Source: Mobula hypostoma (lineage: Eukaryota). Taken from it: DNA of 64,000 nucleotides. The notes below the pieces were generated by a model that saw only the letters and a list, made by a program, of their open reading frames with translations, was not told the DNA's origin and ran no database searches. The position numbers and the translations under genes were made by a program. The stretch spans positions 45,756,001 through 45,820,000 of the forward strand of contig NC_086112.1 in NCBI RefSeq assembly GCF_963921235.1. Direction: 5' to 3'. Positions 1,040 through 43,878 of the stretch are shown here, piece after piece. How positions within the stretch are numbered: position 1 is the first letter of the stretch; every line of letters starts with the position of its first letter.

Positions 1040-4000
1040 TAAGCATTCTTTGATGTTTATATAATTCATTATGGTTATATGTATATTTTGCTTAAAGTCA
1101 GACTAATCTAGACTCACATTTCAGAACCTCCATCTTTTCCTTCAATTAGTTTTATATTTTGGTGTTACAAAACCTAACAGTGGCAACGAAGCATTTTTAA
1201 AATGAATCCTACGACTACCTACCTGTTGAAATGCAGTGCGGCATCAAATAAAAAGTATGAAATGATCAAGTTAAAAAAAAAATGCAGCATGCCTTTCTTC
1301 AGAGCAGCATGTTTTCTTAGCAAAAGGAACAATGATCAAGTAAAAAAAGGCAGAAGATGGAAGAATTCACGTGCTCATAAACAGTGAGTGCTGGGTGATA
1401 TTAATAAGAAAGTAGAAATGGCTGGTTATATTGGAAAGATTTTCATATTTGATTACACAACATATGACTGGATATTGTATACTGAATGGATTGAGCAGCA
1501 TTTTGAAGCAAATGGAATAGCCAGTAGAGGTGAGTGCCAATTTTGCTGACTGCCTTCCTTGGATTTAAAAGTGTACAGTTTGCTTCAAAGTTTAGCTGCT
1601 CCAACCAAACCAGCCGAAATGATCTTTACTGTTATTCTGAAAGTAATGCAGGAACATTTAGAACTGAAACCATTGTTGGTTGCAGAACGCTTTAGGTTTC
1701 ATACACAGAATCAAGAGGAAGAAGAGTCTATTTCAGCATATCTGGCTGAATTGAAGAGACTGTATGAGCATTGGCAATTGGCTTAATGATACACTGTGAG
1801 ATCCTTTAGTTTGTTGTATCTTAAAAGAAAGCATTCAAAAACATTTTCTACCTGAAGCACAACTTGCATTTAAAAGAGCAGTTGAAATAGCCGCATCAAT
1901 GGAAATAGCAGGCAGAGATGCAATTAAGTTGCTGTCAGGAATGAGAGAGAGTGTGAATAAAATTGCAGTGTCTAAACAGAAACCAGCCTGGCCAAACAAA
2001 TTGTGTACTGTTGTGGCAGGGGCTCACACTCATTGGACAAAAGCAGAATGAAAGGCAAAACTTTCAGAAAATAAAACAAAGTAGTATGTTGGGCAGACAA
2101 AAATAAATGCACTGCACAGGATAGAGAAAAAGGTAAAATGTCAAGTTGCAGTTTCAAAACCAGCACTAAGCTGTCGATGAAAAATCTGATAATGATGAGA
2201 GTGGCACAGGATTGTGTAGCCTTGGGATTTACAATGTGAAAATTATCACTAGACAAGCAATATGGCTTGCACCAGAAGTGAACAGCAAATTAATTAAAAT
2301 GCAATTGGAATAGGTGCTGCGAGGCTGCCCAGGCACTCAGTGTTACCTGGATGACATCATTGTTACCAGTGCGGAGATCAAGGAACATCTCCAAAATCTC
2401 AAGACAGCCTTAAAAAGATCAGAAGATTAGGCGCTCAGAGCACAATGAAACAAATGTGAATTCTTTCAACCAAGCATCACTTACTGTGGTCACACCATTG
2501 ATGCATAAGCATTAAATAAGAGTGCTGAGAAATTTCAAGCAGAGGTGGATGCCCCAAGGCCAAAGGATGTGTCAGAGTTGCGGGCCTTTTTAGGATTTGT
2601 CAATTACTATAATAGTTTCGTGCCAAAGCTGGCCACTGTGCTCCATCCCTTGAACTCATTACTGCAGTTCAGAAAGAAATGGCAATGGAAAAAGCCGTGT
2701 GAGGTGGCTTTCAAAAAGGTAAAGGAAATGCTGACATCAGACACAATAATCACACATTATGATCCACACCAACTAGTGAACTTTACCCGTAACACCTCAC
2801 CTTATGATATAGGTACAGTCATGTCACATGTTATGACTGATGGAAGCAAATGTTCCATCGCCTTTGTACCATGTTTCCTTACTGCTGCAGAGAAAAATTA
2901 TACACAGATTGACAGAGAAGCTTTGAATCTGGTTTGGGGTGTAAAATGTTTACAACTAGAAAAGACCACACACTGTCTCAGTCTACCTGACCACCCAAGG
3001 TGCCTGAAATGTGCAGAAATTACAGTTCCCTCTGTTTTTTTTTTAACCAGTGCTGGAATGAGCTTGCTCTTGACAGGGGTTGCCATATGTGGGGATTGAG
3101 AGTTGTTGTACCATCCAAGCTGAGGGCTAAAGTGCTGGAGGAGCTATATGCTGGTTGTCTAGGCATGGTTAAAATGAAAGCATTGGCTCAAAGTTTTCTC
3201 TGGCGGCCTGGAATAGATTAGCAGATCGAGCAGCTTGCCATGCATTGTTTGGGGTGCCAACATATCTGATAGATGCCAAGGGCAGTGCCTCTCCATTCCT
3301 GGGAATGGCCTGCATTACCTTGGCAGAGGATGCATGTGGATTTTGCCAGACCATTCATGGGCACAAGTTTCTTGGTAGCTGTGGATTCAGCTACAAGGTG
3401 GCCTGAAATGTTCCCAATAGCCTCCACTACAGCCTCATACACTATTGATGTGTTGAGAAGCATCTTCTCAATGACTGGTGTTCAAGAAAAATTGGTCAGT
3501 GACAATGGTCTACAGTTTGTTGTGGAACAGTTTCAGTCGTTCCCGAAAATGAATGGAGTAAGACATATTACCTCTGCATCATACCACTCAGCTACAAATA
3601 GCTTGGTGGAAAGGTTTGTCCAGAGTCTGAAGGACACACTGCAAGTAATATCAGCAGCATAGACTACACTAACACTGAATCAGAAGCTCATCAAGTTCCT
3701 CCTTGCATGATGCAACACAGCACACTTCACAACTAACAGCTCATCAGCTATGCTGTTCTTGGGTCATTCCTTGAGTCCACACTTGGATATCCTCACACTC
3801 GATCTCAGAAGGAGTATTTAAGACAAACAGCTGAGACAAATTGAAAGCTCCCCAAAGAAGGCATTCAATGTTGCACTCTTTTGACAAGGGACTACAGAGT
3901 GATCAAAAGTGGGGAGTTGAAAAGATTAAGGATAGAACTGTACAGCTCTTTTACCCAGTGGAGATGTCTCCAGATGATATCAGACACCGACACATTGACC

Positions 4001-4589
4001 AGTTGAGGAGAGCAGAGTCAATTGTTAAAGAAGACATGTGCCCAATGTTGTCAGAACCACTTCCTGCAGTTCCAGAGTCAACTTTTACAACCACCATGGA
4101 GGAGGACCCAGAAGCTGAGATTGCTTCTTAGCCATAAGTCTCACCTGCCAAGCGGAGGGATCCCTCTTGTCAGGAAAGCTGTTATCCCACAAGAGAAAGA
4201 AAGCCTCTACAGTGATTAAATCTATAGGCCTGAACAGGACAATTTAAAGTTTACTATGCTGAGGGTGTCTGTATAGTCATTGTATTATATAGTATATGGT
4301 GTATATAGTTAAGGTACATTTTACATTGAGTTGGAGTTTATAGCTAAGCAGGGAGGAATGTTGTGTATTTAATATTTCAGTAATATTTTAGTAAAAATGT
4401 AAATAAATTGATTAAGCATTCTTTGTTTATATAATTCATTATGGTTATATATACAAAGTATGTGAATGGCATATGTCATCATGGTATCACATCATAGGGG
4501 TGCACCCCATTTAAAGTAAAATTCGCATTTCAAACTCTCCATATTTTCATTTAAATTAGTTTTATGATTTGGAGTTACAGCTTATAACA
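1040..4589 (+). mobile_element. Degenerate Ty3/Gypsy LTR retrotransposon (copy A), with internal deletions
   Basis: Partial 5' LTR 1040-1179 ending TAACA; PBS-like TGGCAACGAAG at 1181; gag from ATG 1418 (AERFRFH..NQ.EEESISAYLAELKRL); RT YLDD at ~2344; RT thumb/RNaseH (ELRAFLGFVNYY, AEKNYTQIDREAL); integrase (PWQRMHVDFA, VSDNG, ERFVQSLK); PPT AAGCAGGGAGGAA; 3' LTR 4359-4589 TG...CA. Many stops and frameshifts. Confidence 0.93.
4359..4589 (+). repeat. 3' LTR of Gypsy copy A
   Basis: TGTTGTGTATTTAATA...TAACA directly after the PPT; matches 1040-1179 and the other LTRs of this family in the window. Confidence 0.9.
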
Positions 4590-4689
4590 GCCATCATTTC
4601 TGACTCTGAATTTATGTGCTACTGTCAGCAATCTTTGTCTTACACTTGTTCATCACACATATGTACTTAACAGTAAGAATTATTACATA

Positions 4690-5421
4690 CCAGTAATATA
4701 ATGACAATATAATGTGTACAGGATAACAAAAACAGCATAGTAGTATCAGGATAGAATACCTGAATCAGATGTTGAACAGCAATAAACAATAGCAGAATTT
4801 TGGTCTCGACCTATGATGTAGTGTTTTGATTAGAAGATTACAGTGTCCTGTATTTGTGTTTTACTTTTTTAGGTATAAGGTAAGGTATAAAAATAATTAG
4901 CATTGTAGACTTGTTCTAGTGTTAGATTGTCATCAGTGACGATCTTTGCAAATTCAATGAATTTCTCTGCTGCTTCATGTATGACTATGATCAGCAGTCG
5001 CTTTATCTTTAAAAAATTAATGCCATACCTTTTCTTAAATTTTTGCAACCAGTCAGCTAAATATTCACAATTATTTTCAACTTTCAGTTCATCGTGATAG
5101 ATCCTTGCTTGTTTCTTGATCAGTATACCGTAAGTGGCATATATTCACTCCGACACCGACAAGTCTGCTCTTCCAATACAATATTGAGATCCTTATTTTT
5201 CATTTTATGCAGTGTTTTTATAATTTTCATTAACTTCTGTTCAATACATATGAGGTTTCTTCTCAGAAACGTATGTGGTGCACAGAGACCTGCACATTGC
5301 TTGGGTACCTTCCTAGTGCCTTGAGATATTTTCCTTATGTGACATAATTTCAGTGCTCAGAAAAGTTTTGGATTTCGGAGGCTTTTGGAGTTTGAAACTC
5401 CGGATGGGGGTACTCTACCTG
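4690..5421 (-). mobile_element. Pogo/Tigger (Tigger4/Zombi-like) DNA transposon remnant
   Basis: Terminal ...GGGGTACTCTACCTG|TA at 5421. The minus strand encodes a frameshifted CENP-B-type HTH (KTLHKMKNKDL...; the WLQKFKKR.GI.F region). Left boundary uncertain. Confidence 0.7.
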
Positions 5422-7149
5422 TAATAAGTTACTAAGATGCGGCTCCTAGATAATTTGATCTTGTTGCTCAGTTCTGCTGCTTAATGGCGCTATGCCCTCC
5501 ATAAATTTTTCCTTCAACCCATTTGTATTCCTCAATGCAAAATGGAAGTGGTTGTAATAGTTAGTCTTGAAAACAGTTGAAAAGTCAGTTGGATCTATTT
5601 GTGGATTGATAACTGTCTTATTGTATCTGATCCCAACTCCTATGCAAAAACTTTGTTTTAAGATTACAATAGCGTGCAAGAAGCAACTGGTGTGCAATAG
5701 CATTGTAAAATAATATTTATGACATTCTCAGCTGTGGCTTCTGAAATGCAGTTGAGGTACCAAAGATTCATAATTATTGAACTTAATTTCTATGCTTTTG
5801 TGTTGGCACAACTTTGCAACTCAGTATTGTGGAAAGCTGTACAAAAAGGAATCATGTCGATTTTGGATGAAAACTAATTCAGACTCAGATATTGGATATT
5901 CTTATGGCCAGACATTGGACAATGGAAGGCTTGTGCTGCTCTGTGGTGCAAAAGTCATGAAAGCACACATTTGTTAATGTGTTAGCAGTATACCCTTACT
6001 GGCTCAGCAATTCAGCTGAATTACACAATTACTTCTGCAGTTAAAAATGCAATTAAAAGCTGAGGCAATGCACATTCCTGCTGGAAAGTAGAGTACACAG
6101 TGACCACATGTACTCTGTTACAGAATCTTTTGCAATTAATTAGCAGAGACGATAACTTGGACCTTCCCCCTTACCCCAACCTTACTCTTTTCACTGACTC
6201 TTTGAATTATTAGATAAAATCTTTGAATATCATTTTTTCTCTACCATCAATATTTTGTTTTGTAGTGGCCACTAAACCATAGGGTGGAAGATGCTATTGG
6301 AATTTTCTGTGCCTTCAATAATATGGCGCAAGGAAATGATCTTTATAGACAGATGGCAAGACAGGCAATGAAGCTTCAGTAGTAAAGATGAACAGATGAT
6401 CTTTTTAGTCCAGTACCAGAACATGCCAAGAGCTTCAGATCTGACATGCCCCTACAGATTGCATACACTTCCAATTGCTGCGAGCTTCTTCTGCTTGCAC
6501 TGATTAAAGAACTATATTTAATGCTAGCCCAGCCAATAGCATGTGATTAGCCACTGCATTTTCCTAAACAAGAGAATTAAACCATCTATCCAATCCTGAG
6601 AATATGTAGGTCGTATTATATGATAGCAATCATATAACACAACTTATCATTTGCAGGAACATTTGAAGGGAATATATTACATAATGTATTGATCTATTCA
6701 GTGACTTGAACTCAAGCTGCACTGATGGAATGGACAACTTCAAATTCAAAATGAAATGGTTTCTTATTGTTAATCCTCTCTGGAAAATGCACAAATTTCT
6801 CAGAAAAGAATGTTGCCCTTTCTTATATATATATATATAATATATATATTAGCAGCCCCCCCGAATCCCTACAATATAAACAGAAAAATGCCAAAGTTCA
6901 ACAATATATATAATGAATAGAAAGTTGCATCCTCATGTCCAAATCTCACCTTCCCTTCTCATCCATGGGATGATATGGCTTCCATTCTGATATATGCAGA
7001 AGGAAATCTATGATATGGCTTGGAAACACACTTGCTTTGAGTCACAAGATTATGGGTTTAATTCAAATTATGAGATTTAAAACTTAGGTTGATATTTTGT
7101 TGCAATGCTGAGGGACGTTGCATTGTTCTGGATGCATGTTTTCAAATTC

Positions 7150-8630
7150 ATTTATTCTTTCGTTAGGGATTTGATCATTACTGAAAAGGCCTGCATTTAC
7201 TGCACATCCTTTGAGAAGATGAGGGGTACATCAATCTCCCATACTGTTTTTAGGTAAGGAGTTCCAGAATTTACACCTAGTGGTAATGAAGTCCAGTTAT
7301 GCATTTCCGAATCAGTATGGTGCGTGATTTGGAAGAGACTTGTGGGTCACTGGTGTTCTTCAGTTCCTAATGTCACTGAGGTTGTGTGACAGGTTGCATA
7401 TTTAGGAAGTGCTGTAGGAGTAGTCAAGTCAATTAAATATAGAGCATTCTGTTCATGGTATACATTACAGCCACTGTGTGTTAATTGGGAAGGGAATAAA
7501 CATTTGGGGTGTCTGTTAGGATGCTAATCAAACAAACTGCTTTCTCTTGGATGGCTTTGAGCTTCCCAAGAGTTGTCAAAATTAAGCTTATCCAAAGCAT
7601 TCGGAGAGTATTCCATCACACTGCTGACCTATACCTTGTAGATTGTGGAAAGAATTTGGGGTACGAGGAGCTGAGTCATTGGCTACGGGATACCGAGCCT
7701 CAGACTTCATGGATTTTAGCCACAGTATTTTTATGTGACTGATCCAGTTGATAGTGGGGGTTTTGGTAATGGCAATGCTATTGATCATCGGGAGGAGGTG
7801 GTTAGACTCCATCTAACTGGATATGGCTATTTCCATTTTATGTCGTAATGCTGGAAGGTTGTCTAAGTTTTGCTGCATGTAGGAATGGACTGCCTCCTTT
7901 GCCGAGGAATTGCGAGTGGAATTTGATATTGTGCAGTTACCAGTGAGCAAACCCACTCCTGGCTTCATTAATGAAGCAGCTGAAGATGTGGGGCTGAGAA
8001 CTTTGGCGTGGAGATGCTTTGAGGCTGTGATTATTACCTTCCAGCAAGTATAATGTGTTCTTTTGTGTGACACTCCAACTGTTGGAGTGTTTCCCCCCTG
8101 ATCACATGGATTTCATTTTTACCAGGCACGTTGAAGATACAAAATGCTGCAAAGGCAGTCACTCTCAGCTTACCTCTGAATTCAGCTCCTGCGTTCATGT
8201 TTGGACCTAGGCTGTGACGAAGTCCGAAGTGGAGTAATTCAAATCATGGATCAATGAACAGATAATTGGTGAGTGAGTACTGCTTCATAGCCCTGTTAGT
8301 AACACCTTCTGCCACTTTGTCTATGAATGGGAGAAGACTGATTAGCAGGGTTGGACTTGCCCTGCTAATTGTGAATAGAACATACCCAGGGCAGTTTTCC
8401 ACAATGACGGGTAGAATTCAGTATCTAGATCTGTGGAGCAGCTGGACAGCATCTGGGATGCTGTCACTGGATTGAATGCTCTCACCTTTTGATTTACATG
8501 GATTTAATCCAATAGGATGGAGAATGACTTCTGTGATGGCAACGAACTCTTGGCTTTCAGTGACATTGCCATTGTTAAACCCCTGTCTTTTAACAACGTG
8601 GAGAGTTTGTGCTGGAGCTAAACGGACCAA
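7150..8630 (-). mobile_element. Old, highly decayed CR1-clade LINE fragments
   Basis: Similar to 50440-50900; decayed RT-region motifs on the minus strand; no ORF. Confidence 0.5.
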
Positions 8631-35038: not shown

Positions 35039-36511
35039 CTGAAGTTTATTGTAAGTTTTAAAATGGGCATACATTCATTACATGTATTATTTTAGGGTTC
35101 AGTTGCCCTACTATCTGCTGAAATAACCACTCTTTTTCCATGCTGACATTGAGGCATGCATCTGCCCACTTGATCTTTCTAAGGATTCTACTTATTTGGG
35201 GATGACTATTAGCAAATGGTACAAATTATTATTCAAATATTTGCAAATATTTAGTTAATATATTTCAACATCTTCTAAATTGCTGAATTCATAAACCTGT
35301 TTCAAAAATAAGCTTAATCTCAAACAGAATTGAAGAAGTATGTAAAATTAGAGCAAAATTTTTGTTTGACATATCGATAACCTCTGATTTATTTCTAATA
35401 TAAGCAGAAAGAAATCATTATATAATCATGCATTTATGAAAAAGAGTTGCACACTGTCTCAGAGATTTATATTTTGTTGATAATATTGTCCAAATAAAAC
35501 TTCGTGCTGGATAACTTGCCTGATTACAAAGTGTACTTTTGATGGAAAGAAATTAAAAACGAGCTCTGTTGGCTAAATATTTTGTGTATGTGTTTCAACA
35601 GCAGTATATTCAGGCAGAGGTCCATTCTGCTAGAAAGTGTCTTTGTGGGATGTGCCTACTAGACTTGAAAAGATTAGTTTGTGCTGGTCTATTAATGGGT
35701 ACAATGGCATTAGGGATGAGATGTATCCTGAGCAAGATAAATACTGTCAGCTTTGGCTTTATCTCAGCAGTGAGATTTATCCAAAGCTGAATGGTTATTG
35801 ATCAGGCTGTAGATTATCATATAATGAACTCTAAGTTCACTTAGGACTTATTTTTGGTGAAGCAAAGTTGACAAACAAACAGCTACTCAATTAATTCTTA
35901 AGTTCTCTCTTACAATTAATGGTCACTGGAAAACCAAGGTGAGTTGCTGCAAAGCTTCTTACAGATTCAATGCTTTTGCAGCTTCTGGAAGACTGGAGTA
36001 TAGCTCACCAACTTCTTACAAAACAATATTAAAAGGATGAGGAATATTGCCATAGCAGTATGTATTTCTGAATAGAATCACTATGGTCGGGTCTGTTTGG
36101 TGTAGAAGTGTTCAACTACTTCATTAAAATGATCTTGTTATGTCTTGCAGATTCAAAACATTTAACTAAAACTAAGGAAGACGTGGGGTGTCCAAAAATG
36201 GGTGTAACTTCGTCTTTGCTTTAAGCAAGATGCACAGGTATCACACGGTAGCGTAATGACGTATGCAGTTAACTTTTTTTTTTACAATATAACCCAGAAT
36301 TAGTTATTTAATCAAAAAAGAATACTTAATCAACTTATATATATACAAGATTACTCAAATATTATTGAAATATTAAACACTCAACACTCCTCCCTGCTTA
36401 GCTACAGTATAAACTCCAACTCAAGAATGAATGCATCTCAACTATATACACAGTAGACGATATGATACAACTACTATATCCAGACATCCACAGCATAGTA
36501 AGTTTTAAATT

Positions 36512-37137
36512 CCAACACTCCTGTATGCATCAGAAACCTGGACAACATACCGATGACATCTGAAGGCACTTGAAAAGTTCCATCAATGCTGTCTTCGAAA
36601 CATCTTAAATATCAGCTGGGAAGATTGAAGAACCAACGTCAGTGTGCTAAATGAAGCAAAAACAACAAGCATTGAAGCCTACGTCATCAAGAACCAACTA
36701 AGATGGAGTGATCATGTTGTTCGGATGAAAGACGAACGTCTGCCGAAACAAATCTTCTACTCCCAGTTTGAAGAAGGCAAACGTAAAAGAGGTAGACAAC
36801 AGAACAGATTCAAAGACGTCTTAAAAGCCAACATGAAGAAATGTAACATCGACATCAACAATTGGGAAACCAATGCCAAGGACAGGAAACTCTGGCAAGC
36901 CATCATCCGAGAAGGAACAGCAACTTTCGAAGCCAACAGATGTGCAGAATTAGAAGAAAATGGAAAGAGAGGCAGCACCAACCAAAGCCCGATCTGCCAT
37001 CTGGAACTACCTGTCCTGAATGTGGAAGAACTTTCAAAGCCAAGATTGGACTCATAAGCCACTTGAGAGCCCATAAGTAGATCAACAGAACGAAGACCAT
37101 CATCCTTGACCTCGAGTGATAGCCACAACCATGACGA
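36512..37137 (+). mobile_element. 5'-truncated RTE-clade LINE with ~31-bp TSD
   Basis: LLYASETW, QLRWSDHVVRMKDERLPKQIFYS, C-terminal CPECGRTFKAKIGLISHLRAH; TSD CAGACATCCACAGCATAGTAA(G/A)TTTTAAATT at 36481-36511 / 37138-37168. Confidence 0.93.
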
Positions 37138-37391
37138 CAGACATCCACAGCATAGTAAATTTTAAATTGCCCATTTAGGCTTAAAGATTTAATTGCTGTG
37201 GAGGATTTCTTACTCTCATGGGATAAGAGAGTTTCTTACTCTCTTTCCTGACAAGGGGGAGCTTTTGTTTGGCAAGTGAGACTTGTGACTGTGAAACAAT
37301 CCCAGGTTCTGGGGCTTCCTCTGTGGTGGTTTCAGGAATTGACTCTGAGACTGAAGGAAGTGGTTCTGACAGCTCTAGACACCTTTCTTCT

Positions 37392-38155
37392 CCCTTTCTC
37401 TCTCTATATCTATTTTGATCCCTTTCTTTTTCTTTCTCATGTTCCTTCTCTCTTTCACACCATTTTCCTTCACTATCTTGTACATCTTGATCCTGGGAAG
37501 GTGTATTTAGTTCAAAAAGCATCGAGTACTTTTCTGGCATACTTGATGAATAAACTCCTCTCAGGCATCAAGCGGGTACACACCAACGTTTCGATGACAA
37601 AGAAGAAGATGGCAGAGTTTGTCATCGAAACATCAGTTATAATCAGTACCTGTACTTGGCTTTAAGTCTGAGAAGAGTTTACTCATTGCATTTAGTTCAC
37701 TGAAGTATTCTCTTATTAATCCCTGTATTGCTAACTTTATGATCTGATCTTTCCCCTTAGTTCCCTCATTCACAACATCATTTAATGAAGCCTGTTTTTG
37801 TATCTCCATTGACTGCTTTCTTTTTGTCCTTCTATTCATCCAGCTGCGCTTTGGTCTTTGAATCTACTTTTACAAGCAGCTTTTTGCCTTCTACTTGAAC
37901 AACCTTAATGCATTCAATGTAGACTCTGGTTCTTTATACTCACAAAAGCTGAATACTTGCAACTTTCCTGAAGCTCCTTGAATTCTCTTCCAGCTTAAAA
38001 CCAAGCCACAGTTTGCAAGTAACTGCCTGATTAACATATCAGAAACTTTCTCAGAAATGTTGCCTACAAAAACTTCCATGTTTTCTCTGAGCAACGTCGT
38101 CCTTCCTTGGTCCAATATACTTTCCAACCAGAGCCACAGAGGCTGGTACCAATGC
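37392..38155 (-). pseudogene. RBM25: Processed (intronless), disrupted fragment of RNA-binding motif protein 25 (RRM through RE-rich region)
   Basis: ALVPASVALVGKYIGPRKD; VFVGNISEKVSDMLIRQLLANCGLVLSWKRIQGASGKLQVFSFCEYKEPESTLNALRL; KKLLVKVDSKTKAQLDE; IREYFSELN|TPSQD; EREKEHEKEKERD. All match my recollection of vertebrate RBM25. Frameshifts and deletions are present. Confidence 0.93.
37515..37686. mobile_element. Fold-back Penelope-type mini-insertion (second family) inside the RBM25 copy
   Basis: 13-bp TSD TG(T/C)ATTTAGTTCA (37502-14 / 37687-99); inverted arms; partial hammerhead core GAAGA-A-GATGGCA..TGTCATC-GAAAC. Confidence 0.7.
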
Positions 38156-39621
38156 CTGTTAGTCTTCTGTCGGGCAGTGATTCCTGGTGCTTGGCATGGT
38201 GATTGTGTTTGGCATGGCCAGTTGTGGCATCATCCAGCCCCTTTCTGAATTTGCTCTCAGTTGGCTTTGTTGCAGGAAATGTGGCATGCAAATGGTGGAT
38301 AGATCGCTGATCAAGTTGTAGTTGTCTCAGCCACTCATGTCTCCACAATGCTGGATCTTCTGTTTTTACCACATAAAGCCCAATTTAGATTGTTGGTTGT
38401 TGCATTTCACAGCCACATATGTCATTCCCACAGGAGTTAACTTTTCTCCAGTATAAGATTTTAGTTTGAAATGCCATTCAAACTCACTTTGTGGAATGAC
38501 TGAAACAGCTGAATCAGTGTCTAATTCCATTTAAACCAATTTGCCGTTCAATTCTGACATAAGCCATATTGCTTGTCTATTGTTAATTTTCACACTGTTA
38601 ATCTCAAGACTACACAATCCTGCATCACCCTCATCATTGTCAGATTTTTCATTTTCAGCATGCAGATTAGTGCTCTTTTTGAAACTGCAACTTGACATTT
38701 TAACTTCTTTTCTTCCCTGAGCAGTCCATTTATTTTTGTCTGCCTGACATGTTCTTTGTATATATCCTACTTTGTTGAATTTTCTGCAAATCTGCATTGG
38801 TCTGGTGTATGTGAGCCCCTGTCACAATAGAAAAATAGTTGGTTTGGCTAGGCAGGTTTCTGTTTAGACATTGCAATTTTGTTCACACTCACTTACGTTC
38901 CTGACTGCAACTCAATTGTGTCTCTGTCTGTGGTTTCCATTGAAACAGCGATTTCCACTGCTCATTTGAATGTAAACTGTGCTTCAGTTAGGAGCTGTTT
39001 GTGAATGTTTTCTTTTAAGATTCCACAACCTAAGCAATTTCTCCATGTATCATTAAGCTCGTTACCAATCTGACGATGCTCAGCCAATCTCTTCAATACA
39101 GCCATGTACACTGAAATGGATACACTTAAATTGACTCACTTTCCTTTTGATTCTGCTTATGAAACCTAAAGCATTCTGCAATCAACAATGGCTTTAGTTC
39201 TAAATGTTCCTCATTACCATTACAATAGCAGCAAATCTCATTTCTGATGGTTTGGTTGGAGCAGTCCAACTTCAAAGCAAACTCCATGCCTATAAACCCA
39301 ATGAACTCAGCATAATTGGCACTTGCTTCTTGTTGTTTGTTTCATTTACTTCAATATACTGTTCCAATAGCTCAGTGCCAATTACCCATTGTATAATCAA
39401 ACACATTAATCTTTCCGATGTATCCAGTCTTTTCTGATTTTTTAAATGATTATAGTCACCCAGTACTCACTCTTAATGAATCCTGAATTCTTCCATTTTT
39501 TGGGTTTTCTTAAAAAACACTCATGCTGTTCTATTTCAACATTGCTCTTGCTGTGTTTTATTTTATTTCAAACATCTCACTGCAGCAGGTCAGTAGTCAC
39601 ATGGGGCTCGTTTTAAAATTA

Positions 39622-40531
39622 CAGAGAATCTTGTTCCCAGAAATTAAGAATCTCTGGGAACAAGTTTTACAGACATCAATATCTGGGGAAACTTGGAATG
39701 AAATTTTTAAACTGGTTAATACTTCATCGCTATGTGCTCGCCATTCCCTCATACAATTTAAGGTGGTACATAAAGTCCATATGACTAAAGATAAGCTTTC
39801 TCGTTTTTATTCGGATATATCTCCCTGCTGTGACAGATGTAATAATGGAGAAGCTTCATTAATTCATATGTTTTGGACTTGTCCAAGTCTTGAAAAATAT
39901 TGGAAGGAAGTTTTTCAAAATTTTTCTTTACTTTTCAAAGTCGACTTTAAGCCTAATCCTCTGACGGCCCTATTTGGTATTGTTACAGGACAAGATATCA
40001 AGCTGAAGACATCTGATTTACATATTTTGGCCTTTAGCTCTCTTATAGCCAGGAGGGTGCTTTTGTTTAAATGGAAAGATGTTTTTCGTCCTACTCATGC
40101 TCAATGGTTTTGCAACGTTATGTCATGCTTAGATTTAGAGAAGATTCGTTGTTCAATTTCTGAATCTCATCAAGACTTTCAAACATTGTGGGGACCTTTT
40201 CTGAATTATTTTCAAAACTTACAAAATCTTCAATTTGTTGTTTAAATTCAAATGTTGGCTATTATTAATTTTTATTATACGAGAAGGTATTTTACCTTTC
40301 TATCCTTAATAAACACCTTCGGTCTTGGAAGGGGTTAGACTTTTTTTTGTAATAAATTAGTACATTTCAATATAACTATTGATTAACTTTCATGAATATG
40401 GGGTAATGAGATTGTTATTATGAATAGATATAATGTAACTGGTAATTTTTAAAGAATCCTTTTTGACCTTTTATATATACTTTCTTGTACTCTGTATTCT
40501 TCCATGAAGAAACTAATAAAATATTGGAAAG
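39622..40531 (+). mobile_element. 5'-truncated L1/Tx1-clade LINE in the Gypsy leader
   Basis: zf-RVT motif CDRC..EASLIHMFWTCPSLEKYW; AATAAA with A-rich tail; flanking AAAATTAC repeat. Confidence 0.88.
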
Positions 40532-42139
40532 AAAATTACTTCCTTGCCAATGTTATGTTTTGTAACTTCAAAACATTAAACTAATTCAAAGGAAAGACAT
40601 GAGAGTCCAGGAATGGAAGTGTAATTTGGTCATTACTTTAAGCAAAGTGCATACACATCACTTGATAACATGATGATGTATGCAATTGATGTATTTTTAC
40701 AGATAACCCATATTTAATTATTTAAACAATCAAGAATACTAATCAACCAACATATATACATTACTCAAATATTCTTGAAATATTAAATACACAACACTCG
40801 TATGTACTTGTGTGACATTCAAGACAATATGAAAATTATTTGAATACTAAATCCATTTGAAAGACAAAGATCAGCAAAGAAGTAACACATCCAGATATGG
40901 CTGGAGAATCATTGCAAAGACTTCCCTTCCTTCACTAAACCATCACTTTTTAAGTTTCTTAAGCAGCTACATTCAGCTTTGTCCTATTTTTCAGATCAAC
41001 ATTACCCCTTGGTAAAATCATCACAAAAGGTATCAACAAAATTCCACATATTGTTGTCACTTGGCTCTACCTCAGCACCATTTCCGTGAACTTGTAAGTC
41101 AATTCCACTTGTAAGCCAAACTGCATGCTGCTATTCCCTTTCTCAATGGACACATTTCTTCAGCTTTCCTCCCATTCTTTTCCCCAATTCTGACTCATCT
41201 GCTGTGCTTCCGACTATTTTAGCTGCTTTGGTTTCAGCTTAATTCTAATACCTCTTGCAGTTTGCCACAACTGACTGGAATGGAATCATCATCTTAATAA
41301 GGAGGACAAAGCTTACATTTCCTGTTCTAGAGTTTCACTTAAGAGGAAGGGAAATCTGCAGGAGTTCTTACAATTAAGCAATTGAACACACTGCCCAAAC
41401 ATTGTTTCAATAATATTAAAAAAAAGCAAACTCTGTACCAGACCAAAGATTCCAAACAGAATGACACACGACAAAGCTTAGACCTTTGTGTGGATTTCTT
41501 TCTCAACCTGAATTCTACTTAAACAATCTTTCTTATCACTTTTGAGCCCTTAATGAATTAAATTATAAGTACCTCTTGGCTATTGGTCTGCGATAATGCT
41601 AATTTCATTCCGAGTACCAAGTACGGTTTATTTTGAAATGCAACTAACTTCATTTTACACAAGTGGTATTGGAATAAAGTGCAGATATTGTTAAATCATT
41701 TGAAAAATACATATATCATTTTTCTGTAAAAATATTAATGGAATGTAATTTTTGACATTTTTACTACTCTGGTTTTTAAATAGATTTTTAACATTCATAA
41801 CATGATTACTCTCATCACATGATCTTCAAATATTTACCTTCTATTTGCCGGTAAGTACAGAAACCTTGCCACTAGAACTTTTATAGTCATACAGTATGGC
41901 AACAAGTCATTTGACTCACGTTGTCAACACAGACCAGTGACCATCCAACTGTATTAATCCCACCTTTCAGTACTTGGCCTGTAGCCTTCTACACCCGGGG
42001 TGATTCAAAAGCTCATCTAGAACCGCAGTGTATTTCAGGTTCAAGATTCAAGATTGTTTAATGTCATTTCCAGCACACAAGTGTAAAGGAGAATGAAATC
42101 ATTGGTGCTCCTGATCCAATGCAACACAAGAAATATAGC

Positions 42140-43878
42140 AAACAATAAGCCACATTGAGCTTGTATGTGGTAAAAACAGGAGGGCCAGCAGTATGGGGCC
42201 ATGAGTGGCTGAGACAATTACAACTTAATTGGGGATCCATCCACCATTTGCATGCCACATCCCTTGTAATAGTGAATTAAGAAATGTGCTGGTTGATGCT
42301 ACAGCAGTGTTCAAGGATGGCATTGGAAAGCTCAAACACATCAATGGTAAAGTAGTGTTAAATGAAAATGCTACACCCAAGTTTTTCAAAGCCCATCTGG
42401 TTCCTTATACCATCCACGATAAAGTAGCCAGTGAGCTAGATTGCATGGAGGCTGAAGGAATTCTTTCCAATGTTGAGCACATGGGCAACACCAGTGGTCC
42501 CAGTAGCCAAGAAGAATGGGTCTGTCAGGATTTGTGGTGATTTTAAGGTCACTACCAACCCAGTTCTGAAAGTAGATCAAAATCCACTGCCCAGGATAGA
42601 GGATATCTTTGCAAACCTTTCTGAAGGGGAACACTTTAGCAAAATGGACTTAGCTGAGACCTACCTACAGGTAGAGAAGCAAGAAGAGTCCAAAGTGATT
42701 TTTACCATAAATACTCACAAAGGGCTTTATTGCTATAATAGGCTTATTTTTGGCGGATTAGAAAATTATAGGCTCAGGTGTGAATTCTTCAAACCAAGCA
42801 TCACTTGCTGTGGTCACGCCATTGACACACAAGATTTACCTGAGTGTGCTGAGAAAATGCGAGCAGTTGTGAATGCTGCAAGACCAAAATATGTGTCACA
42901 TTTGCACTCCTTTTTAGGATTTGTCAATTACTGTAGCAGGCTATAAAATGTACTATGCTGTGGATGTCTATATAGTAATTGTATTATATAGTGTACGGTG
43001 TATATAGTTGAGAAGCATTCTCTGTTGAGTTGGAGTTTATAGCTAAGCAGGGAGGAGTGTTGTGTATTTAATATTACAGTAATATTTGAGTAATATTGTA
43101 AATATATAGTTTGATTAAGCATTCTGTTGCTTATATAATTTATTATGATTATATACAGTGTACGAAGTATGCGAATAGCATGCATCATCACTGTATCATG
43201 TTATATGGCTCACCAGCCAAGCTCTTTTTCAGGAAAGTGGTTATCCCACAAGAATAAAGAAATTTTCTACAGCAATTAAATCTTTAAGCCTGAATGGGAC
43301 AACTTAAAACTTAGAATGCTGTGGATGTCTATATAGTAGTTGTATTTTATAATATTCTGTATATATTATATTATAGGCATCCGTTAGTCTTGTGAGACCA
43401 TAGATTTGCGCCCTGGAAGGTTTCCAGGGCACAGGCCTGGGAAAAGTTGTATGGAAGACCAGCAGTTGCCCATGCTGCAAGTCTCCCCTCTCCACGCCAC
43501 CGATGTTGTCCAAGGGAAGGGCATTAGGACCCATACAGCTTGGTTCCGGTGCCATCGCAGAGCATTGTTAAGTGCCTTGCTCAAGGACACACACACTGCC
43601 TCAGCCAAGGCTCAAAATAGTGACCTTCAGATCACTAGACCGACGCCTTAACCACTTGGCCATGCACCAACACAACTGTATATATTATACATTCTCTTTA
43701 TTTACATAATTCATTATGGGTTATATGCAAGAAGTACATGAATGGCATATGTTAGTACATCATTACACCACCAAGTCATATATATGCACTTCACTAAAGT
43801 AAAGAGTAAGTACATATGTTTATCCTTGTGCTCCCATGTTTTTCTTTCGATTAATTTCTGGAGTTACAAAATGTAACA
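42140..43878 (+). mobile_element. Gypsy remnant (copy C): pro-RT fragments, partial LTR from 43058, duplicated 3' region and LTR end at 43878
   Basis: WATPVVPVAKKNGSVRICGDFKVT.NP, FSKMDL, SFLGFVNY; PPT + TGTTGTGTATTTAATA LTR. Confidence 0.88.
43375..43673 (-). mobile_element. tRNA-headed SINE (CORE-like body, RTE-like tail)
   Basis: Minus strand: GTGTTGGTGCATGGCCAAGTGGTTAAGGCG (A box), TGTGTCCTTGAGCAAGGCACTTAAC body, hairpin tail. Confidence 0.75.

Follow-up and report, generated by a model that had tools for sequence, protein, structure and literature searches.

A decayed Gypsy family of Mobula hypostoma with spliced RBM25 exons in place of pol

A chimeric element on the minus strand

The window, a stretch of 64,000 nucleotides of the Mobula hypostoma genome (GCF_963921235.1, contig NC_086112.1, positions 45,756,001 to 45,820,000), carries on its minus strand an element in which an LTR, a PBS, gag and protease are followed by an intron-free piece of the host gene RBM25, the tail of pol, a polypurine tract (PPT) and a second LTR. 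This Gypsy layout, proposed in the initial annotation from the letters of the window, is recovered by blastn and tblastn, and the match of gag and protease to a teleost Gypsy polyprotein spans positions 39425 to 38226. RT, RNase H and integrase are missing from the window copy, as the annotation had stated, and all three are present in pol-type relatives. The cis signals, which were said to be kept, comprise an intact PPT and paired LTRs, together with a PBS that is present though degenerate. In the order of the element, the features are the following:

40551..40796, minus strand: 5′ LTR (TG...CA)
40539..40549, minus strand: PBS, degenerate, starting with TGG, directly past the 5′ LTR; better kept in sister copies, e.g., L120
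39520..40530, plus strand: LINE 3′ fragment, antisense to the element, boundaries approximate, behind the PBS; a gap against sister copies
38620..39434, minus strand: gag with stops and frameshifts, boundaries approximate (tblastn, teleost Gypsy protein P0197, E 4.5e-75)
38230..38619, minus strand: protease (LDT-SAVSVI motif near 38530) and the protease-RT linker up to the 5′ junction
38223..38229, minus strand: 5′ junction, 7-nt microhomology TGCCACA between pol and RBM25 exon 3, with the same reading frame on either side
38156..38219, minus strand: 48-nt cassette exon of RBM25 with a private 16-nt duplication (parent C1:99832633-99832586, AG/GT ends)
37687..38155, minus strand: RBM25 exons 4, 5 and 6 and the start of exon 7, joined exon to exon, containing the RRM
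37515..37686, no strand assigned: hairpin-shaped dispersed repeat of 172 bp with a 13-nt duplication, inside RBM25 exon 7
37393..37514, minus strand: remainder of exon 7, what is left of exon 9 and the first part of exon 10, with internal deletions (medium class; exon 9|10 join read by eye)
37384..37392, minus strand: 3′ junction, 9-nt microhomology GAGAAGAAA between RBM25 exon 10 and the pol tail, where the pol frame is not kept
37138..37383, minus strand: 3′ tail of pol and beginning of the 3′ untranslated region
36512..37137, plus strand: LINE(-like) 3′ fragment with a 31-nt target duplication, just before the PPT; absent from sister copies
36387..36398, minus strand: PPT, intact
36136..36386, minus strand: 3′ LTR

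The two LTRs are 77% identical (blastn; K2P 0.224), and the copy is interrupted throughout by stops and frameshifts. Its flanks agree at one of five letters at 5 bp, which leaves no recognisable TSD, as is also the case for several sister copies. The RBM25 piece contains an RRM (PF00076, E 1.7e-7) and is 88% identical to vertebrate RBM25 across it. The annotation had placed this segment at 38155-37392, and its identification as RBM25 with an RRM holds, but the true start lies at 38229; the approximately 65 bp that had been left unassigned consist of the end of exon 3 and the 48-nt cassette exon with its 16-nt local duplication.

The parent gene and the captured span

The parent RBM25 gene lies on the minus strand of contig C1, near 99.79-99.84 Mb, and thus on a different contig from the window. 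Its exons 2-10 (in our numbering) have GT-AG ends and give an open frame once spliced, and its protein differs from the RBM25 of Heptranchias perlo at 7 of 195 residues. It was located by a direct protein query; three loci returned by a Pfam PWI (PF01480) search for the parent are not RBM25.

Across 87 copies, the captured piece begins 10 nt before the end of exon 3 and ends at nt 28 of exon 10, so that eight splice junctions are crossed and 29.2 kb of gene are condensed to 1.07 kb, with no intron sequence. All eight junctions are found in long copies and six remain in the window copy, which has lost exon 8 and a large part of exon 9 by deletion. The parent has an intron at every junction within the span, and the expectation that alignment to it would reveal crossed exon-exon junctions is confirmed. 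The piece had been described as running uninterrupted and without introns; the absence of introns stands, but its continuity is broken by the hairpin repeat in exon 7 and by the extensive loss of exons 8 and 9. RBM25 exon 2, the exon 10-11 sequence beyond the junction and the 3′ PWI exons each occur once in the genome, at the parent only.

Between exons 3 and 4, the parent holds an in-frame cassette exon of 48 nt, the peptide of which matches the start of two Heptranchias isoforms. The exon is conserved; it occurs in proteins P0003, P0346 and P0347 and is joined to exon 3 in one unnamed, contig-derived protein. A simple motif test over 60 scanned proteins detected it in none of the remaining RBM25 proteins.

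Junctions between pol and RBM25

The Gypsy state at the two junctions was read from twenty pol-type loci for the 5′ site and twenty for the 3′ site. The junctions fall in the protease-RT linker (5′) and in the pol tail (3′), and pol is replaced, not interrupted, by the RBM25 insert.

At the 5′ side, one junction is common to the copies. Two diagnostic sites past the 7-nt microhomology distinguish host from Gypsy: in a sample of 46 copies not chosen by junction motif, nine were too changed or deleted to score, and among the 37 scorable copies both host letters are found in 23 and both Gypsy letters in none. Host letters past TGCCACA place the 5′ switch inside exon 3, not at a splice site, on RNA that was already spliced. 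Splicing of a Gypsy donor onto the acceptor of the cassette exon was also weighed; it is rejected, as the copies have host exon-3 letters before that acceptor. The 5′ fusion leaves RBM25 in frame with gag-protease.

The 3′ junction, anticipated to be compatible with both partners, is an exact 9-nt microhomology. The chance of such matches per random pairing of a natural pol copy with the mRNA is p=6e-4 for 7 nt and p=5e-5 for 9 nt; for the 9-nt match within purine-rich parts only, it is p=9e-5. The annotation had postulated two RT template switches, and both junctions lie in exact microhomologies, as these putative switches predict. Poly(A) and TSD around the RBM25 piece, or an intronless parent span, had been named as outcomes that would speak against this origin; they were looked for, and none was found.

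A dispersed, non-autonomous family

The genome of 3.48 Gb was searched with junction 18-mers, allowing up to one mismatch, which gave 769 chimeric junction sites (control 1) and 1,657 pol-type junction sites (control 0), so that chimeras make up about one third of junction-bearing copies. A motif across the exon 6|7 join is found at 569 sites (control 6) and is present in 7 of 40 copies picked by their junction, from which a recapture estimate of about 3,200 chimeric copies is obtained (95% range about 1,700-7,700). Judged by detection rates in copies picked by similarity, there are 1,450-5,200 chimeric copies, and first-look candidate counts for the family are 4,370 and 5,555; all copy numbers above 769 are estimates.

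In each of the 19 other loci fetched, the RBM25 piece has Gypsy sequence upstream and the pol tail downstream, while RBM25 is found in none of 40 pol-type loci. The family leaves 5-bp TSDs: of 16 copies tried, 13 were well anchored, and their 5-bp flanks agree at 34 of 65 letters, compared with 19.4 in the shuffled null (p=0.0003); the match at 6 bp is not significant. Many dispersed copies with one structure and different flanks, accompanied by a helper of the same age (see below), constitute a non-autonomous LTR family.

The helper family has the domain order PR-RT-RH-IN between its LTRs, with no env seen, in tblastn comparisons of L167 and of positions 1331-4473 of the window. Its pol-type members match the Pfam domains RVT_1, RT_RNaseH and rve, two of them below the cut-off, and the nearest named proteins are Gypsy/K02A2.6-like. 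Its LTRs (TG...CA), PBS and PPT are recognisable, as are 5-bp TSDs in sister copies.

The 40 chimeric loci fall into 19 short, 10 medium and 5 long copies (the latter retaining exon 8), together with 6 truncated ones. The medium and short classes have one deletion in common, which begins in exon 7 and ends at the start of exon 9. All three length classes retain the RRM part; it is the RE-rich part that has been lost. Selection for frame-keeping deletions was examined and rejected, the deletion shared by medium and short copies measuring 119 nt in most alignments.

In a gag-protease tree of 61 of 146 rows, selected for length, 28 of 35 chimeras lie on one side together with one pol-type copy, and 7 of 35 lie among pol-type copies. 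The chimera label changes 5 times on this tree, against 19.9 when shuffled. The sequences give only modest support to the view that the chimeras form one gag lineage, since the tree is star-like and weakly supported and relatedness by itself is enough to bring such counts down.

No chimeric protein was found in the public collections searched, a result that is expected for dead copies and uninformative on other species. Run contigs from two organisms contain the whole element at 80% likeness with both junctions bridged; the RNA status of these runs is a guess, and one of them is probably DNA, so the contigs are no firm sign of a second host species or of co-transcription of insert and element, a further trait of LTR-mediated retrocopies.

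Age of the family and selection on its parts

The K2P distance between paired LTRs has a median of 0.246 (range 0.149-0.306) in 18 chimeric pairs (17 of 40 whole loci, and the window) and a median of 0.233 in 7 pol-type pairs (the 7 of 40 loci with both LTRs); chimeric and pol-bearing copies are of equal age. The median pairwise distance between copies is 0.186. The best-scoring copies are about 80-85% identical to the RBM25 protein, and nearly all of the best 150 contain stops. Two copies on one contig, L087 and L088, are only 1.4% apart, which looks like segmental duplication, not recent activity. Substitution rates in elasmobranchs are slow, and together with the observed divergence these rates, uncalibrated here, point to an age of tens of millions of years or more. 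The suggestion of an amplifying chimeric family is borne out as far as the family is concerned, with its 769 junction sites, but not as regards present amplification: no young copy was found among the copies compared, and by its divergence and stops the family is old and dead.

In the RBM25 part of 87 copies, the synonymous share of changes is 0.266 compared with a neutral expectation of 0.257, and 175 stops are found in 16,260 codons. Alleles specific to a deletion class, 16 in number, are synonymous in four cases, which is neutral (p=0.62), in a test that is blind to selection on RNA. No copy among the 87 stands out convincingly by its synonymous share (lowest p=0.01, uncorrected), and these tests detected no purifying selection on the captured RBM25 codons. 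Differences from the parent that are common to all classes are synonymous in 20 of 21 cases, which fits purifying selection on the parent. The RBM25 part has changed neutrally, and the cargo is most likely a passenger. The analogy with oncogene transduction, drawn in the initial annotation, holds for the mechanism of capture but does not extend to a function of the captured protein.

With gag-protease forming a single open phase of 420 codons as far as the junction, the founder would have been able to make a Gag-protease-RBM25 fusion. Over these codons, there is no stop common to the chimeras, and gag alleles enriched in chimeras comprise 11 non-synonymous and 7 synonymous changes; Gag may have worked in cis in the chimeras.

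Origin of the chimera

We consider it highly probable that the element in the window is a decayed member of a non-autonomous Gypsy family that has spliced RBM25 exons 3-10 where RT, RNase H and integrase would otherwise stand. On this view, the exchange was likely brought about by two template switches, guided by microhomology, onto an mRNA packaged alongside, and pol-bearing relatives then likely copied the hybrid in trans, with RBM25 as a neutral passenger. This reading builds on the anatomy, the crossed splice junctions, the microhomologies, the single 5′ junction, the 5-bp TSDs, the copy number, the equal ages and the neutral change of the RBM25 part. RBM25 mRNA would have been packaged together with Gypsy RNA, and during minus-strand synthesis RT would have jumped to it within exon 10 and returned to the Gypsy RNA from exon 3. 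The chimeric product, with LTRs, PBS, PPT and gag retained, would then have integrated and been mobilised in trans by helper enzymes, a step suggested by the lack of RT and integrase and by the LTRs shared with the helper. The hybrid likely arose a single time, after which it reached no fewer than 769 sites and probably a few thousand. Shorter masters, derived from deletions in the GA-rich region, would have become the majority, the order probably being from long to medium and short, and all classes would have died out along with the helper.

The same end product could be reached if a Gypsy copy had stood upstream in an RBM25 allele and a DNA deletion had joined pol to exon 3, the read-through RNA then being spliced and packaged, so that only the 3′ junction would be an RT switch. 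DNA deletions use microhomology too, and solo LTRs of the family lie 36 and 66 kb upstream of exon 2; however, these LTRs are oriented opposite to RBM25 and lack internal sequence, and the 5′ junction falls within a 50-nt exon instead of at a splice acceptor, which leaves read-through transduction with only a slight chance. A processed RBM25 pseudogene made by a LINE, inserted into a Gypsy and trimmed by later deletions, would be in keeping with LINEs active nearby, two fragments of which lie in the window copy. It has next to no chance of being correct, since the insert is without poly(A), and the 3′ PWI exons and the exon 10-11 stretch beyond the captured part are single-copy, present at the parent only; TSD around the insert are likewise absent, pol is replaced rather than interrupted, and both ends are microhomologies.

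A further question is whether the captured piece aided the element, in that an in-frame Gag-protease-RBM25(RRM) fusion or a host-like RNA boosted copying or gave shelter from silencing. The in-frame 5′ fusion, the open phase of 420 codons, the share of chimeras among junction-bearing copies (about a third) and the retention of the RRM part in all three length classes, with loss of the RE-rich part, are compatible with useful cargo. Yet a fusion is in frame by chance in one case out of three, the deletions are located in a GA-rich repeat where slips are expected, the subfamily alleles are neutral and the 87 copies include no convincing synonymous outlier; moreover, non-autonomous elements are often more numerous than their helpers even without cargo, as Tan et al. 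(2016; PMC5131818) state with reference to other work. On this evidence, such aid is very unlikely. Put most broadly, the RBM25 piece would be the very reason for success, through a Gag-protease-RRM fusion or through a host-like RNA, an attack on which by small-RNA defences would also hit an essential splicing factor, and a pol-less Gypsy would thereby have gained a third of the family insertions in a cartilaginous-fish germ line; we regard this as unlikely.

Relation to known systems

Among plant LTR elements, TR-GAG elements are non-autonomous, keep gag and protease and are devoid of RT, RNase H and integrase. The chimera resembles them in retaining gag and protease and losing the pol enzymes, but TR-GAG elements belong to plants and are defined by pol loss, with no host mRNA in its place. 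Acutely transforming retroviruses have a defective genome in which a host mRNA is fused in frame to gag-side sequence, and they depend on a helper. These three traits are shared by the RBM25 chimera, which differs in being a germ-line transposon without env and in showing no sign of selection on the captured protein.

The closest counterparts are the LTR-mediated retrocopies of animals, for which further copying as non-autonomous elements has been proposed (Tan et al., 2016; PMC5131818). As in the family described here, a spliced mRNA truncated at its 5′ and 3′ ends replaces part of the internal ORFs while both LTRs are kept, microsimilarity marks both points of switching (a median of 6 bp in those retrocopies, 7 and 9 in the present family), and the retrocopy is not surrounded by poly(A) or TSD, the 3′ end of the mRNA being missing in our case. 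The cases in the main text of that paper are few, and they are young: five in zebrafish, four in chicken, eight in mouse and three in human, with two fly retrocopies at more than one site. Here, by contrast, one capture has given rise to a family with deletion subfamilies, now long dead, of no fewer than 769 copies and probably about 3,000. Maize Bs1, HERV-K/FAM8A1 and yeast Ty chimeras, cited there as single cases, also have spliced pieces of host genes in an LTR element in place of pol, in other hosts and other elements. In gymnosperms, Gypsy and Copia elements with host exons are described in large numbers (PMC13477047), with thousands of donor genes and a mean of about 39 elements for each; the present family, by comparison, comprises thousands of copies of one gene from one event in a vertebrate.

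The mechanism is already known (Tan et al., 2016; PMC5131818), while its scale in a vertebrate is unusual and was not found in print: no report of an RBM25 chimera family was met in the literature searched, Repbase, Dfam and most subscription journals lying outside that scope. The family indicates that one LTR-mediated capture of a host mRNA can grow into a vertebrate repeat family of thousands. It is also a fossil of an old RBM25 splice isoform with the cassette exon, and it displays the shrinkage of a non-autonomous element by nested deletions. In practical terms, the RBM25-like pieces, thousands in number, will be a source of error for gene annotation and for the mapping of reads, and they provide a test case for whether transposon silencing spills over onto a copied host gene.

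Later insertions in the window copy

Three later insertions break up the window element. The LINE fragment behind the PBS contains an ORF at 39514-40245 with a zf-RVT domain (PF13966) above the cut-off, and the fragment just before the PPT is one that we take to be RTE-like. The hairpin-shaped repeat in exon 7 is not in the 19 sister copies compared and has 1,574 first-look candidates genome-wide.

Further copies of the Gypsy family

Two further members of the Gypsy family lie in the window besides the chimeric element. One is a copy of the helper type that bears pol and keeps both LTRs; the other is a rearranged fragment that carries an inserted short repeat. Two solo LTRs of the family are found near the parent RBM25 gene, on contig C1 of the M. 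hypostoma genome (G000).

Window 1040-4589, plus strand: gag and parts of RNase H and integrase present; protease and most of RT deleted
Window 42130-43878, plus strand: linker and RT start, partial LTR, tail, LTR
G000:C1:99876648-99876890, antisense to RBM25: solo LTR upstream of RBM25 exon 2
G000:C1:99906403-99906635, antisense to RBM25: solo LTR upstream of RBM25 exon 2

Among the chimeric copies elsewhere in the genome, L087 and L088 (C96, 22.42 and 23.60 Mb) diverge by only 1.4% and are mutually inverted, and the pair is probably a segmental duplication. In another chimeric copy, a stop-free frame of 281 codons spans the protease linker and RBM25 (L108:1216-2058), a length inside the range that neutral decay could leave among thousands of copies.

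In the chimeric element of the window, the RBM25 piece contains a dispersed, hairpin-shaped repeat (window 37515-37686). Its ends are inverted and a further inverted repeat lies inside it; a first look across the genome gave 1,574 candidates, frequently as inverted pairs.

RBM25 isoforms and other PWI-domain loci

The parent gene includes an in-frame, 48-nt cassette exon (G000:C1:99832586-99832633, locus L030), whose peptide is identical in Heptranchias isoforms, and which may be shark-specific or else unannotated in other groups. For exon 4, an acceptor lying further upstream is also used in some isoforms (protein entries P0003 and P0347). Further PWI-domain loci, distinct from RBM25, are L021-L023 (C76:29.41 Mb; C2:244.68 Mb, candidate match).
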